The position numbers were made by a program. From the NCBI GenBank assembly GCA_963422365.1, contig OY729426.1:544001-608000 (forward strand): 64,000 nt of DNA. Reading direction: 5' to 3'. This document shows positions 37,501 through 43,500 of the stretch, in pieces. The stretch is from Nitrospirales bacterium. Its GTDB lineage: Bacteria; Nitrospirota; Nitrospiria; Nitrospirales; UBA8639. Each line of letters opens with the position of its first letter. The first letter of the stretch is position 1.

Positions 37501-40500
37501 TAAGGATCACCCCGAATTTGTGATGCTGGGGATCAACTACCAGGACGAGATACCCAAGGCTCGGGAGTATTTACAACGCTATGGGTCAAGTTTTCCGCAT
37601 ATTCAAGATGTCAAAGGCTCGTTAGCCATTGATTTTGGTGTCTACGGAGTGCCGGAAACGTTCGTCATCGACCAAGAAGGAATCATTCGCCATAAATGGA
37701 TCGGGCCGATCGTGGATCCTGTCTATACCGATCTTACGCAAAACGTTCTGACCCCATTATTACACGGCTCAGACAACCCCCTTCGACAGGGCTCAGGGCA
37801 GGCAACTTGAATGTTTCGTCTCTTCCCCATTCTGATCATTCTGTGTTTCGTCTCCCCCTTTGCAGGCATGGCCAAAGTCGTGGATGAATCAGAGATTGAT
37901 GAAAAAGTGCGCGACATTGCCAAAACGCTTCGATGCGCCGTGTGCCAGACCGAAAATATTTGGGAGTCGGGCGCACCTCTGGCCCATCAGATGCGGGAAG
38001 CCATTCGAGAACGCGTGATTCAAGGCCAATCCGCTGAGGACATTTTGGCTTATTTTCACAGCCGCTATGGCAATTACATCATGATGGAACCACCGAAACA
38101 GGGATTGAATTGGCTGATCTGGTTGGCCCCGTTTCTTTTGCTATTCGGCGGTAGCGCCTTATTATGGAGAGAAGTCAAAGGATGGGTGAGCAGAACCCCT
38201 GCGCCTCAGCCACAAACACCCCCCACGCTTGATGAAGCATCCCGACGACGAATCGAGCGAGCATTGCACCAGCATAAATGAAATGACCTCTTGTTAGCCG
38301 TTCCACGCGCCAAACTGCCCTAAAAAAAGCTTCATGTCGACCATCTTCCTCATTGTCTGTCTCACGATCCTCATCGTGGTAATTACAGGGATTTCTTCTC
38401 CTTTTTGGCGGAAGGACCCCACAACGTCAGGGCTGATTGGTCAGGAAGCCGAGGAAGATCAAGAACAGGCCGATCTCTCTGTCGAGCACGAGGTCCTTCT
38501 GCAATCACTCCAAGAACTCGACGTCGAATTGGCGCAAGGTCGGTTGGAACAAAAGGATTATGAGCGATTGAAAGCGACAGACGAACGGCGCTTGCTGGGA
38601 GTCTTGGATCGACTCGAAGCTCTTGCCTCAACCAGCCGCCTACCATCGTCATCCGACCAACCCAAGCAACCAGGAAGTGCCTGGGGCTCAGTGATCGCGG
38701 TCAGCCTAGTAGTGATCGTGTTGTCGATCGGGATCTATAGCTTTCTGCAATGGCGCACGATTAACCGGCTCGTGGAAATCCAAACCGAAATGGCTGACAA
38801 AATGCCGGATCCGCGAGAAATGGTCGCGCGATTGGAAGCCAGACTCAAAGAGAACCCCGATGACGTGCAAGGTCAGATGCTGGCCGGTCGCTCTTACATG
38901 GCCATGGACCGCTTCGATGAGGCGAAGAAAACCTATGAGAAAGTCTTAGAACTGGACCCTCGTAATCATGAAGCACATTACAATTTTGGCGTGATCATAA
39001 TCGAAGAACGAAAATTCGACGACCCTAAGGTCTTTGAGGCCGCGGTCAAGCATTTCGACATCGTGTTAGTCGATCGTCCCAACGAACCCGGGGTGAATTG
39101 GTATAAAGGGTTGGCCTTATGGTATTTGAAGCGGTATCGGGAAACCGAAGAATTTTGGGCCACCACCTATAACCATCTCGACCCCGGCAGCCAGGACGCC
39201 GAATTCGTCAAACAAGCCCTCGCCAAATTGCGTAACGGAGAGACGCCCTTTTAGGTTCGTCCAAATTTCAGATCCATAATCCGGCAAGCATTCCCTCCTT
39301 GAAGCAGTGCCTCCGCCAGTCGACACATGGCGAGCAAAGTCAGCTTGCCATGTGCGAGGCCAGATTAAATCTTCGCCAGATACGAAGCGACGAGAAGGAC
39401 CGCGAGGGTCATCACGATGATGGTTTTTTGCAGAGTATCGGCACGGGCAGGGGCGGCTAGTGGTGAGGACGCCTGCGAGGTGTCTTGAGATGAAGGCGCA
39501 TACGGATCGATAATGAAGTCGTGAATGAGGAGAAGCCCAAAGGCTATGGCAAACAGGAACAACTTCAGCATCAACACCACACCCCAGGTGGTTTCTATGC
39601 GGGCGGATCCGCTTTCATTCAACATCTGATACGAGCCGGTCAGAATCAAGATAATGAGACTCACCCACGCGACGGTTCGAAAGCGTCGGCCAGACAGGCG
39701 TACGACTTCCCGAGATTTTGAATCGGATGGAGTATTCCGTGCCGCGGGAGTGAGCACAAATTGGGAAAACATCAATCCGCCGATGAGGGCGATGGAAGCG
39801 GCGAGATGAAGCCAGGTAATCAGGTAATCAGGCATAATCGCATGGAAGAAGCGTGTTCAACGGGAGGCAAGGTATTACCTACCAATGTTTTTGCCTTGGC
39901 AGCAACCCTATGACCCTGCATAACACGCATCTTCAAAAATTTTTCCGGTAGAATATGACCAGGCCCTATAAAAGGGAATCCGTGCCCTAAAGGAGATTCT
40001 CCGATGAACCAACTCGCCACACTTCGCATGGCCGATCAAGCCATCATACTCCCCATCGCCACGAGAACCGAAGGTGAACAGGTGCTTGACGTCACAACAC
40101 TGCACGCCCAAACAGGACTCGCCACCTTTGACCCGTGGTACGTGAATACCGCCTCCTGTTCCAGCACCGTCACGTTTCTTGACAGAGACAAGGGATTCTT
40201 CGATATCGCGGCATTCCCATTGAGCAACTGGCCGAACATTCGAATTTTTTGGAGACCGCCTACCTTCTGATTGATGGAAGGCTACCCACCCAATACGAGT
40301 ATCAGATATTGACGAACGCCATCACCCGGCACACGCTGCTGCACGAAGACGTGAAACGTTTTTACGATGGGTTCCCTAAAGATGCGCACCCCATGTCCAT
40401 TCTGTCGGCTGTGACCGGCGCGCTTTCGATGTTTTATCAAGACAGCCACAACCCGACCGATCCTCAACAAGTCGAGTTCTCCACTCACCGTCTTCTTGTC

Positions 40501-43500
40501 AAAATCCCAACCATCGCCGCCTATTCCTATAAGAAGTCGATCGGGCAGCCCTTTGTCTATCCCGATAATGCGTTGGACTATTGTTCCAATTTTCTCCGCA
40601 TGATGTTTTCGGTTCCCTCCGAGCCATACACGGTGAATCCCATTGTGGCCAAAGCGTCGGACCTGTTGTTCATCCTCCATGCCGATCATGAGCAAAATTG
40701 CTCAACGTCCACGGTACGTCTCGTCGGATCGTCGCATGCGAATCTCTTTGCTTCCGTGTCTGCCGGCATCTATGCGTCGTGGGGACGACATGGCGGTGCG
40801 AATCAACAAGTGATGGAGATGCTCGAAACCATTCATGCCGACGGAGACAATGTGCGGAAAGATATCGATCTGGCCAAGGATCGGACCCATCCCTTCCGCC
40901 TTGCAGGGTTCGGCCACCGCGTCTACAAACACGATGACCCTCGGGCCAAAATGTTAAAACCGGCCTGCGAGCACATTCTGGCCACCTTCGGCATTCAGGA
41001 TCTGTTGCTCGAAATCGCCAAAATCTCGAAGAGATTGCTCTCAAGGATGACTTTTTCGTCTTAAACAAATTGTATCCGAACGTCGATTTTTACAGCGGGA
41101 TGATGTACAAAGCGATCGGGTTTCCCGTGAATATGTTCACGGTCTTGTTTGCGATTGGCCGATTACCGGGATGGACTGCCCATTGGCAGGAAATGATGCA
41201 GGAACCCTCTGTCAAAATCGGCAGGCCTCGTCAATTGTATACCGGCCCTTCCTTCACCGACTATGTGCCCATGGATCGAAGAAATGACGAAACCGCCCAT
41301 GCCGGGAAGGCTCGCATGAAAGACGAGGCACATCTCCACCCCTTGTAAGAAGCGGTGAGGTGGGTAGAGCCGCGAGCAGAAAGCGCACATCATAGGCCAT
41401 TGAGACGGCATCCCTGTTCGGGGACTTGCCTTATGCCGCCAACAGCAGGCGCCATGAGATGGCGCAGCCACAAAAGAGACGGGGTAGAGGGCACCATCCC
41501 TAAAATTCCACCTTAGGCGTGGCTCTGGCTTCTTCTGATATTTCGAAATATTCGGCTTGTCCGACTCCAGCCAGACTTGCATAGAACCTCCCCAGCAATT
41601 TCCGGATAAAGGTATTCAGGATCCGAACACGATCGTTATACCTTTTTCGTTCAACTGCCAATCGATTCTCCGTCCCTTCCAGTTGGTCTTGGAGCTTTAA
41701 AAACGACTGATTGGATTTGAGTTGGGGATAGGCTTCCCGCAAGACCAACAGCCGCGACAGCGCCGACTCGAACCCGCTCGCCGCTCGGGCTTTCTCATTG
41801 ACTGATTGCGCCTGAAAATAGGCTTTGCGTGCTTCTGCGACTCCCAAATAAATCTTTTCTTCCTGGCTCGCCACACCTTTGACGGTATTGACCAAATTGG
41901 GGATTAATTCAAACCGTCGCTGCAACTGATTTTCGACCTGTGCCCATTGGCTTTTCACCGCTTCATCCATCTCAATGGCTTGGTTATATCCGGAATAGAC
42001 ACAGCCACCAAGCATCACGATCAGGATGAGCAACCCGCCGAAGACCATGAATAATATACGTCCAGCACCCATGATTTTTTCCTCCATGAACTAATTTTGT
42101 ACGATGCCGAACCACGCTAGAGGAGTGACCGGCCTATCAGGAGAGAGCCGTGTTCGTTTCATGAACAAGCCTCGCTACCAGCCCGCACCGCCCCCGCCCC
42201 CGCCAAAGCCTCCACCCCCACCGAACGATCCGCCAAAACCGCCCCCGAATCCACCGCCAAAACCGCCGCTTGATCCGCCCCAAGCGCTTCTCCCTGTTAG
42301 GCCACCCAAGGCACTGCCGAGCAACATACCTCCGACTAATCCTCCGCCACCCCAAGTGGAACGATACCGGCGCCGGCGGCGCATGCTGGAAAACAACATG
42401 AAAAGAAAAAATAACGGGATGAGCAACGATCCCAGAACTGAGCCACCTCCACCACCTCGGCTCGGCCGATACCGATGTTGGGGAATCCCTGTGAGCTTGA
42501 CCTGTTGGGAATCCGCGACTTGATTGGCCGTCACGACCGCCAATCGGAAGAGACCCTTGGAATAGTGGGACTGTTTAAAAAATCGGGAGGCGACCGCACG
42601 GGAAGCCGAGCCTACCCATGAATCGGGCAGCACGCCCTCCAATCCATACCCCGTATGGATTCGTACCTTTCGTTCTTTGAGGGCCAACGCGATCAAGGCG
42701 CCGTTGTCTTTACCTTTTTGGCCAAGTTTCCATGCTTCGGCATGCCGCTGGACAAAACTAAAAAATGGTTCGCCTTGGGTCGACTGCACAGTCAGCACTT
42801 TCACCTGCGCCGTGGTTTTCCGTTCGAGTTCACGAAGCCAGCCCTCTAACTGCTGCTCGGCACCACGGTCAATGATTCCGGCGCCGTCCACGACATAGGT
42901 ACCGGGGTCCTGAACAGACACCTCGCCCCAACTCAAAGCGGACAAGAGCAGCAGGACAACTATGGCGAACGCGGATTTCTTACCCATGGTCGTTACCAAC
43001 GATCAGCCACGGTTTTTAATCCATCGATTTCATCATAAAGCCGTGTAAAATCGTTCCAGTCATGCTGGTGGGTTTCTTGTAGCGCCCCGCGAATTCCAGG
43101 AAGGGATCGATCTGTTTCTTGTTCAATCCGGCCTACTATTTCAAACGCCGAGAGAGAGTCGTATTGTCCATGAAGCCACAGTAACCCACGAAGGGTGCGG
43201 ATCAACCGCTCGGCAATATCGCCTTCCATGGCCCCAAAGAGTTTTTCACGACCTGCGGCCGCAAGGAGTCCTTGACGCATGCCGATCAAGATGGTTTTCA
43301 ACTCACGCTCACATTGAAGCCGAATATGCTGTTCCTCAAACGCGATATCCGCAAAATAGTCGGTACCGACGAAACACAAGTGGCATTGCTGAATTTCTAA
43401 AAACTCCAAAGGGAAGGTATCCAAGGATCCCGTAATGTAGAGGGGTGTCATGATCAGAGGAGCAGCAATTTTGGCTTTTCCAAGTTTGACCCCGTCTTGA

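Follow-up and report, generated by a model that had tools for sequence, protein, structure and literature searches.

The only citrate synthase gene of a Nitrospirales bacterium is probably a recent pseudogene, in a genus with repeated losses of gltA

The only citrate synthase gene (gltA) of the Nitrospirales bacterium studied here is, in all likelihood, a recent true pseudogene, a snapshot of a repeated loss in a genus that uses the reductive TCA (rTCA) cycle and lacks the dehydrogenase complexes for pyruvate and for 2-oxoglutarate (PDH and ODH). The gene lies in the window, a stretch of 64,000 nucleotides (contig OY729426.1, positions 544,001 to 608,000) of the genome designated G000, which together with 37 others made up the genus set of 38 genomes. 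The following features were located in the window:

39365..39835, minus strand: gene for a CopD/DUF4149-like membrane protein, left marker of the syntenic site (PF05425; synteny)
39836..40003, no strand: intergenic region, with gltA on one side and the divergent CopD-like gene on the other (synteny; promoter scan)
40004..41282, plus strand: full-length pseudogene of gltA (type I citrate synthase, 430-aa type), split among three frames (three-frame translation)
40004..40270, plus strand: native-start ORF of 88 aa, the sole product from the gltA start (ORF list, residue mapping)
40189..40191, plus strand: gltA lesion 1, 1-nt deletion in codon 63, at about 40190 (alignment; comparison with a relative)
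40783..40788, plus strand: gltA lesion 2, 3-nt deletion at 40785 that removes a conserved Pro (alignment; comparison with a relative)
41020..41024, plus strand: gltA lesion 3, 1-nt deletion at about 41023 (alignment, residue mapping)
41062..41064, plus strand: TAA closing the frame shifted by lesion 3 (three-frame translation, read-through)
41283..41348, plus strand: 22-codon tail beyond the stop position of the crown-clade gltA copies (alignment)
41500..42087, minus strand: lemA, which marks the right side of the syntenic site (PF04011)
44038..44511, plus strand: gene for a CBS-domain protein beside sdhE (domain search)
44540..45421, minus strand: sdhE (CCG-domain anchor), intact (domain search, dN/dS)
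45418..46389, minus strand: sdhB, intact (sequence search)
46493..48208, minus strand: sdhA, intact (sequence search)

The aligned gltA pseudogene was 83-89% identical in nucleotides to the intact copies of the crown clade. A preliminary description had attributed its disruption to three lesions, two frameshifts and an in-frame stop. We found both frameshifts, as 1-nt deletions, but not the stop: with X placed at both frameshifts there were 0 stops in 427 codons, and an independent nonsense mutation was rejected because the TAA lies 13 codons beyond the second frameshift and ends the shifted frame. The true third lesion is the 3-nt deletion, which removes a Pro two residues N-terminal of a catalytic His (E. 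coli H264), so that W-G-P-R-H becomes W-G-R-H. The altered 3' end was dropped as a fourth lesion, because a gltA scar in genome G029 ends alike, indicating that the tail is older; the copies of G014 and G035 are also tailed. Inspection of the two frameshift sites revealed no long homopolymer and no X-XXY-YYZ heptamer. The 88-aa ORF comprises 62 correct codons followed by out-of-frame sequence, and residue mapping placed none of the catalytic residues in it. All eight catalytic codons (H229, H264, H305, R314, D362, F383, R387 and R407; E. coli numbering, list from PMC13147460) were present in the G000 read-through but not in one chain, as the first frameshift lies before all of them and the second falls between the fourth and the fifth. 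A scan of the intergenic region upstream of gltA gave 0 sigma-70-like sites; this region is retained in the G029 scar and largely gone from the other gltA-less genomes.

It is very improbable that these breaks are assembly errors in an intact gene. Such errors would be favoured by the position of both frameshifts, within or beside short A runs, by the zero depth over gltA in the raw reads of run X17, the one raw-read run examined, and by single-base frameshifts that these assemblies show in genes presumed to be essential, namely aclB in G016 and, in G000 itself, nuoG of the 2M-type complex I, for which five of five relatives checked had two full-length NuoG frames. However, Logan contigs of runs X3 (depth 77) and X5 (depth 21) covered the whole of gltA with 0 mismatches and 0 gaps relative to the window. 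X3 may be the source of the G000 assembly and X5 comes from a separate study; the frame-breaking lesions were thus seen independently of the assembly. In run X6, a relative carries an A after 40189 and CCG after 40785, both missing from the window, and has 67 letters across 40973-41040 as compared with 66 in the window. The in-frame loss of the conserved Pro, the absence of gltA from the two nearest relatives and the mode of evolution of the gene also argue against errors. On the G000 branch the dN/dS of gltA had tripled (0.405 vs 0.134 elsewhere; 2dL 20.4; range about 0.26-0.68 within 1.92 log units), pointing to relaxed selection; this was the highest value among the 30 branches listed, the next-largest 2dL being 4.3. 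A ratio of 1.0 over the entire branch was rejected (2dL 9.0), and G000 has carried the dead full-length gene for about one third of its branch. The control, sdhABE, was normal on the same branch (0.125 vs 0.121). At columns invariant across the 22 intact copies of the genus, the G000 gene had 18 private missense changes, G21R, G45W, G61R and L259S among them, and each intact copy had 0-11. Judging from its sequence, the G000 gltA is a true pseudogene.

The earlier statement that a six-frame search of G000 returns only these pieces of gltA holds, apart from a weak match to aclA. Six-frame tblastn with type I, short-type and PrpC-type queries detected the gltA locus and, weakly, aclA, and a PF00285 search gave the gltA pieces and aclA, nothing else. 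There were three HMGL-like matches in G000; a Re-citrate synthase was rejected for the one IPMS-like paralogue scanned, which is a citramalate synthase (TIGR00977, above the cut-off), and the other two frames (519 and 658 aa) were read as LeuA and PycB.

The intact orthologue of G032 scored 615.7 bits with TIGR01798 (cut-off 485) across about 430 aa and 679 with PRK05614, also above the cut-off, whereas the 271-aa middle piece of G000 GltA alone scored 322 with TIGR01798, below the cut-off, with PRK05614 as its best family. By score and catalytic residues, all eight of which occur in each of the 22 intact copies, the gene of this genus belongs to the same family as the known type I (hexameric, Gram-negative-type) GltA. 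The G000 gene differs from it in being spread over three frames, in the deleted Pro beside the catalytic His, and in that no single frame carries the catalytic His and Asp together. Most other genera of the family have a 380-aa type citrate synthase instead (PRK14036/TIGR01800), with about 35% identity.

In agreement with the counts given before, 23 of the 37 other genomes matched gltA and 14 did not, with the correction that the match in G027 is itself broken (a 16-nt deletion and a TGA). The 38 genomes thus comprised 22 with an intact gene, 14 without the gene, whose sole PF00285 match was of the aclA type, and two with a broken one (G000 and G027). Seven of the 14 gltA-less genomes are single-contig, as had been reported, and the two nearest relatives of G000, G036 and G029, are indeed gltA-less. 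In contrast, the claim that every other genus keeps a citrate synthase (39 of 39 genomes) was not reproduced: outside the genus 68 of 77 genomes matched (47 of the 49 that were >=90% complete and <=5% contaminated), including 0 of 1 in genus g2 and 3 of 7 in the sister genus g12. In G060 of the sister genus, the sole copy lies inside a cluster that reads as prpD-prpB-prpC. Since gltA occupies the same site in the sister-genus genomes G059 and G064, it was ancestral, and lost rather than gained. The 22 intact copies evolve under purifying selection (dN/dS 0.13, like sdhABE) with all catalytic residues in place, suggesting that gltA is still useful in most lineages.

The syntenic site was empty in all 13 gltA-less genomes with a lemA match (13/14 overall; lemA was matched in 37/38 genus genomes), with a spacer of 14-358 bp. 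In G029 the scar consists of the first 59 nt of gltA joined to the last 66 or so. Grouping the gltA-less genomes as one clade was rejected (p-AU 1.8e-67), and the comparison of sites and trees indicates at least 4-5 separate losses. The tree itself gave seven loss groups, G027 included, but this count is too high, because G024 and G009 have one deletion junction in common despite their separate positions. The spread of one deletion allele among G006, G024 and G009 was not retained, the flank trees being unresolved, nor were flanking repeats supported as the cause of the deletions, as a repeat element was found only downstream, and in several intact genomes.

The genes of central carbon metabolism suggest how this may have come about. 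By its named relatives the genus may correspond to Ca. Nitrosymbion (GTDB bin75), which would fix CO2 via the rTCA cycle; ATP-citrate lyase (ACL) would cleave citrate there, making citrate synthase dispensable. aclB was matched in 38/38 genomes and an aclA-type match was found in all, and the acl cluster is present in G021 and G026. Named by similarity and order (aclA was profile-scanned), aclAB, aconitase, icd and sucCD are intact in G000, with frames of 749, 398, 608, 771, 240, 526, 455 and 290 aa at contig positions 1500102-1514828; with a candidate fumarate reductase they would complete the reductive-cycle set tested. No PDH/ODH E2 was found in the 38 genomes, save a 38-aa stop-broken fragment in G023, and the E1 family gave one strong match (G014). 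G000 matched neither E1 nor E2 and, with no intact citrate synthase, seems not to encode a complete oxidative TCA cycle. Without these complexes there would be little acetyl-CoA for burning, and gltA would therefore be of small, conditional use, although retained in most lineages. Acetate can still supply acetyl-CoA, since acsA is kept in 38/38 genomes (the apparent internal stop in that of G000 is the terminal one) and its loss was rejected. Where selection lapsed, gltA would have decayed (G000, G027), been hollowed out (G029) or been cleanly deleted (the 12 others examined); we infer disuse and drift, not selection, as the cause. Glycogen phosphorylase was absent from 38/38 genus genomes, but its loss was dropped as a genus trait because only 9/115 genomes across the family matched at E 1e-30. 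G000 had one glycosyltransferase-5 match.

One might suppose that ACL runs backwards when needed, so that the oxidative cycle survives and merely a redundant enzyme has been lost. Table 1 of PMC13147460 gives -8.0 kJ/mol for ACL in the direction of cleavage as compared with +38.8 for citrate synthase. With ACL near equilibrium another citrate-making route is conceivable, and the reversibility of ACL, OGOR and POR makes oxidative flux without gltA conceivable as well; the reductive-cycle genes and acsA are kept, and sdhABE is present in 31/38 genomes. Nevertheless, we regard this as unlikely: backwards operation would presumably need a low ATP/ADP ratio, the genus has no E2, sdhA and sdhB are missing too from the clade in which gltA has been absent longest, and among literature titles listed there was no report on reverse ACL. 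Probably no oxidative flux remains.

The orthologues of sdhB and sdhA were absent from exactly the seven genomes (four of them single-contig) of the deepest gltA-less clade, out of 38 searched, and in six of these genomes the stretches beside lemA held no CBS-domain gene. G000 and the seven gltA-less genomes outside the clade retain sdhABE, with no relaxation on the gltA-less terminal branches; decay of sdhABE in G029 after the loss of gltA, suggested by an SdhB identity of 79%, was rejected (dN/dS 0.115, long branch). The loss of sdhAB is thus nested within that of gltA (7/7), though as one event. This pattern and the retention of the other TCA genes tested argue against ordinary genome erosion, whereby gltA would be one of many accessory genes that small symbiont genomes shed at random, and its loss would say nothing special about the TCA cycle. 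About 9 of the 207 shared genes sampled, some 4%, looked broken in G000, a figure read by hand from the 30 of 228 ORFs that were flagged, which makes gltA one of several decaying genes, and genome sizes (1.9-3.2 Mb) overlap between genomes with and without it. Erosion, which differs from the preferred explanation solely in denying a pathway-level pattern, is a real but doubtful alternative.

Together, citrate synthase and ACL form an ATP-wasting loop, as follows from their reactions. The loss of gltA may then have been selected: on nitrite the loop would be costly, and deleting the gene would pay wherever storing carbon or using acetate has ceased to be important. The at least 4-5 separate losses and the second pseudogene fit such selection, as does the junction that G024 and G009 have in common, possibly a sign of recombinational spread. 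On the other hand, 22 lineages hold gltA under purifying selection, G000 kept a dead full-length copy, and the flank trees do not group the gltA-less genomes (with low support). The residues that we take to form the NADH site of the E. coli enzyme also seem mostly conserved in the genus GltA (C206 is replaced by Ser), and would switch it off under reducing conditions. Selection is, on balance, an improbable cause, and disuse with drift is preferred.

The preliminary description had concluded that the sponge symbionts are shedding the entry step of the oxidative cycle and keep only the reductive one. The true pseudogene, the repeated losses, the retained reductive-cycle genes and the missing E2 and, in seven genomes, sdhAB agree with this; the conclusion is too broad in that 22/38 genomes keep gltA, G060 of the sister genus has lost the orthologue too, and G000 keeps sdhABE. 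The label of sponge symbionts rests on the published genus description (mostly sponge-associated).

Five MAGs named in Table S8 of PMC11812461 (CO36405bin_1, SB0677_bin_15, SB0662_bin_26, jk18x22bins.71 and p16x63bins.32) encode GltA proteins that share 88-91% identity with the genus query. In the first 11 columns of that table, gltA is scored 0 in four, sdhA/B/E in two of those four, and pdhABC in 11/11; in the main text, "citrate", "gltA" and "succinate" occur 0 times. The o/rTCA inventories of Ca. Nitrosymbion coscinodermae and the Nitrospirales (PMC11812461, PMC10579370, PMC10203281) resemble our genus in retaining aclAB together with the remainder of the reductive cycle. In the texts examined the oxidative cycle is treated as core, whereas 16/38 genomes here lack an intact citrate synthase, and no pseudogene, empty site, loss count or link to sdhABE was found in them. 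Outside subscription papers and bioRxiv supplements, our literature search found no paper on this gltA loss; presence/absence tables may exist in the supplementary files of PMC12342949 and PMC10579370, which fell beyond its scope. The absence of E2 across 38 genomes and of sdhA and sdhB in the seven-genome clade is new here. In the sections of PMC13147460 on rTCA autotrophs (Chlorobiota, Campylobacterota, Aquificota, Leptospirillum), citrate synthase is common beside ACL but not required, and Leptospirillum, without complex II subunits B, C and D, is considered to use A or AB forms for the reduction of fumarate. Those are fixed differences among distant taxa, whereas here the loss is under way within a single genus. 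The reverse oxidative TCA cycle, in which citrate synthase cleaves citrate, employs the same enzyme family with the opposite outcome: in this genus it is ACL that stayed and citrate synthase that was lost.

Loss of genes from bacteria that live with hosts is a familiar kind of event, as is rTCA autotrophy in the absence of citrate synthase. The range of alleles at a single site, from intact through broken and scarred to empty, nevertheless clearly illustrates a repeated loss that is still under way, and with 16 of the 38 genomes of one genus lacking an intact citrate synthase, acetyl-CoA oxidation should not be taken for granted in metabolic models of these nitrifiers. Most useful may be the clade without sdhA and sdhB, which narrows the Nitrospirota fumarate reductase to one candidate, the flavoprotein of the acl cluster (found in all 38 genomes, split over contigs in G008) with its adjacent Fe-S protein. 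Section 10 of PMC13147460 describes the fumarate-reducing enzyme of the Nitrospirota reductive cycle as unresolved, and according to PMC6606698 N. moscoviensis had low expression of citrate synthase, an SDH/FRD cluster below the median and a single flavoprotein much higher. We tentatively suggest that the seven-genome clade is a one-way reductive TCA lineage, without citrate synthase, PDH/ODH or sdhABE, the last having presumably served the oxidative direction, in which these two proteins would be the sole, quinone-independent fumarate reductase; G000 and the others would represent earlier stages, and the loss may be favoured by ending the ATP-wasting loop. If this is true, the fumarate-reducing enzyme of Nitrospira-like bacteria would be settled.

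Citrate synthase coding of the type I (430-aa type) gene, gltA, was found by translation to be spread over three frames between positions 40004 and about 41282 of the window. Alignment to intact relatives placed three lesions in the gene:

around 40190 (codon 63), deletion of 1 nt
40785, deletion of 3 nt, by which the proline of W-G-P-R-H-G-G-A-N is lost
around 41023, deletion of 1 nt

When an X was placed at both frameshifts, the 427 codons contained no stops, and the TAA at 41062-41064 was rejected as an independent in-frame stop because it is the end of a shifted frame. The preliminary description was thus right in calling the gene a pseudogene, while its list of lesions loses the in-frame stop and gains the 3-nt deletion. 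The native start yields only an 88-aa product with none of the catalytic residues, and residue mapping showed that the equivalents of D362, F383, R387 and R407 are absent from the 271-aa middle frame (numbering taken from passages of PMC13147460). The genome under study (G000) is a single contig, 98.6% complete, in which no second citrate synthase was found: the PF00285 matches were the gltA pieces and aclA only, in agreement with a local tblastn using three query types.

An independent check of the lesions was needed because these assemblies also show single-base breaks in genes that are presumably essential, namely nuoG in G000 and aclB in the relative G016. Four of 24 sequencing runs were compared. 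The contigs of run X3 (depth 77), which may be the source of the G000 assembly, and those of run X5 (depth 21), from another study, covered the whole gene without a single different letter or gap. A relative in run X6 had the letters missing from the window at 40189 and 40785 as well as one extra base across 40973-41040, and the raw-read run X17 had no depth over gltA. Evidence independent of the indels came from 18 private changes in the G000 gene (G21R, G45W, G61R and L259S among them) at alignment columns that do not vary among the 22 intact genus copies, compared with 0-11 per intact copy.

The nuoG break, a 1-nt frameshift near contig position 433150, lies outside the window (contig 431707-434405) in a complex I cluster with two nuoM-like genes; the NuoG comparison gave two full-length frames in all five relatives checked, and the break is probably an assembly error, as is probably the single frameshift near codon 45 of the G016 aclB (L255). 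Further G000 genes seemed broken by comparison with G032 (contig 1801835-1802674, 991605-992151 and 995382-995716); from their N-termini we take them to be a cinA/thpR-like pair, an msrB-like gene and a ppx-like gene. Within the window, a ccmE-like ORF of the ccm cluster (34287-35132) has an N-terminal stretch that presumably resembles a DUF559 endonuclease, and may be a fusion or carry an inserted remnant.

Selection on gltA was analysed with our own implementation of a GY94-type codon model (F3x4, 23 sequences, 430 codons, species-tree topology). The dN/dS was 0.405 on the G000 branch versus 0.134 elsewhere (2dL 20.4), and a value of 1.0 for the whole branch was rejected (2dL 9.0). As controls, the neighbouring membrane succinate dehydrogenase genes (sdhABE) gave 0.125 on the G000 branch versus 0.121, and 14 rpoB-region genes gave 0.144 on the G000 terminal branch, inside the 0.04-0.19 range of the other branches. 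Assuming that selection was either normal or absent, the neutral share of the G000 gltA branch was about 31% (about 14-63%). The rpoB-region model put the G000 terminal branch at 40% of the same path and the split from G029 at 68%; by this rough estimate from one gene, inactivation therefore most probably postdates the divergence from G029, and perhaps also that from G036.

The genus counts of the preliminary description were borne out, gltA having a match in 23 of the 37 other genus genomes and none in 14, where the sole citrate-synthase-family match was of the aclA type. The CopD-like gene and lemA, which flank gltA on the left and right, were joined by 14-358 bp in 13 of these 14 genomes (G002, with no lemA match, was left out of this count), showing that the absence is no binning gap. 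In G029 a scar was found, in which the upstream region is kept and the first 59 nt of gltA are fused to the last ~66 nt. One counted holder, G027 (L054:3603-4930), has a second pseudogene according to its assembly sequence: 16 nt are deleted, a TGA falls within the conserved R-P-R-Q stretch, and the private codons comprise 17 non-synonymous versus 7 synonymous ones. The tally for the 38 genus genomes was 22 intact, 2 broken and 14 absent. Two sister-genus genomes, G059 and G064, carry gltA at the same locus, so the absences are losses. On trees of the 14 rpoB-region genes the non-intact genomes formed seven groups:

group 1, a 7-genome clade: G002, G007, G016, G021, G023, G026, G030
group 2: G029 with G036 and G000
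group 3: G017 with G034
groups 4-7, one genome each: G006; G024; G009; G027

That the 15 non-intact genomes other than G027 form a single clade was rejected in a test based on a quick tree (p-AU 1.8e-67). G024 and G009, which the rpoB-region tree does not place as sisters, had a near-identical deletion junction between the CopD-like gene and lemA (L038, L039), an allele either common by descent or moved by recombination, and the G006 junction was partly like theirs; the cautious count is therefore 4-5 loss events plus G027. Two further events may have to be added for the G000 group, in which three different allele states occur.

A variable, G+C-rich repeat element of 60-110 bp with hairpin-like ends was seen between gltA and lemA in G005, G012, G025, G004, G010, G020, G001 and G018; G000 has one partial copy.

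Outside the genus, citrate synthase was matched in 68 of 77 genomes (47 of the 49 of good quality). The 430-aa type was confined to five genera (g1, g6, g7, g9 and the sister genus, g12), the remaining genera having a 380-aa type. G060, a 99% complete genome of the sister genus, has lost the orthologue from the syntenic site, where a 3.1-kb gap contains no gltA (L167, L113); its only citrate-synthase-family gene is PrpC-like and preceded by prpD- and prpB-like genes. No match was obtained in G058, G061, G062 and G063, genomes of 59-92% completeness in which no contig reaches across the site. The claim that every other genus keeps a citrate synthase therefore holds roughly for the enzyme family and fails for this gene. 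Beyond Nitrospirales, the relatives listed for the 430-aa gene came mostly from Planctomycetota (about 59-66%), with a single record from Nitrospinota (75%); this gene, now being lost, may itself have been acquired in place of the 380-aa type of the family.

Among other genes of the cycle, the E1 family of 2-oxoacid dehydrogenases gave one strong match in the 38 genus genomes (G014) and weak partial matches in seven more, and the E2 family nothing except a broken fragment in G023. No sdhB match was obtained in 7 of 37 genus genomes, exactly the 7-genome clade (the deepest gltA-less branch), where no sdhA orthologue was found either; neither CBS nor sdhEBA was found within 12-13 kb beyond the lemA block in the six clade genomes examined. 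Being a single event, this nesting of sdhAB loss within gltA loss has no weight as statistical evidence. Outside the genus sdhB was unmatched in G045, G062, G063, G067, G077 and G103, all incomplete to some degree. G000 keeps sdhABE. The sdhABE of G029 (L140) had a branch length of 0.59 versus 0.15 for the rpoB region with a normal dN/dS (0.115), and looks like a replacement through recombination from a more distant donor. ATP-citrate lyase (aclB) and acsA were matched in 38/38 genus genomes, and two sdhA paralogues were kept in all of them; the first belongs to the acl cluster, and the second is read as nadB. The acl cluster was present in G021 and G026, icd lying outside the G021 stretch examined.

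In the reductive cycle citrate is cleaved by ATP-citrate lyase, citrate synthase has no role and 2-oxoglutarate is derived from succinyl-CoA. In the expression data consulted for N. moscoviensis, citrate synthase was low and the SDH/FRD cluster below the median, with a lone flavoprotein much higher (PMC6606698), a pattern that fits gltA and sdhABE working in the oxidative direction. According to the genus description (PMC11812461), the type MAG uses neither formate nor hydrogen and lacks a canonical bd quinol oxidase. With no PDH/ODH either, little would be left to burn, and gltA might then be of only conditional use, such as sending acetate to 2-oxoglutarate, as a section of PMC13147460 proposes for Chlorobiota; the gene would be lost wherever that use lapses. 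The same source places the ATP-citrate lyase reaction near equilibrium, so some citrate formation by this enzyme is possible. The earlier reading, that the entry of the oxidative cycle is shed and the reductive cycle kept, is partly supported: the aclB matches in all 38 genus genomes agree with it, but 22 lineages hold gltA under purifying selection and sdhABE is retained in G000, both of which argue against a uniform trend.

In the first 11 columns of Table S8 of PMC11812461, gltA is zero in four (two sponge, one coral and one cold-seep MAG), sdhA/B/E in two of these four and pdhABC in all 11; the main text never mentions citrate. Background was also taken from parts of PMC10579370, PMC10203281, PMC12342949, PMC8407350, PMC13200403 and PMC13768755. 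Our literature search, which left most subscription papers outside its scope, found no paper describing gltA loss, and supplements may hold more such tables. The loss is of a familiar reductive kind; its presence/absence zeros were already in Table S8, the loss itself being described nowhere that we found. The clade that also lacks sdhAB adds to its use, because the loss of these genes there singles out one candidate fumarate reductase.
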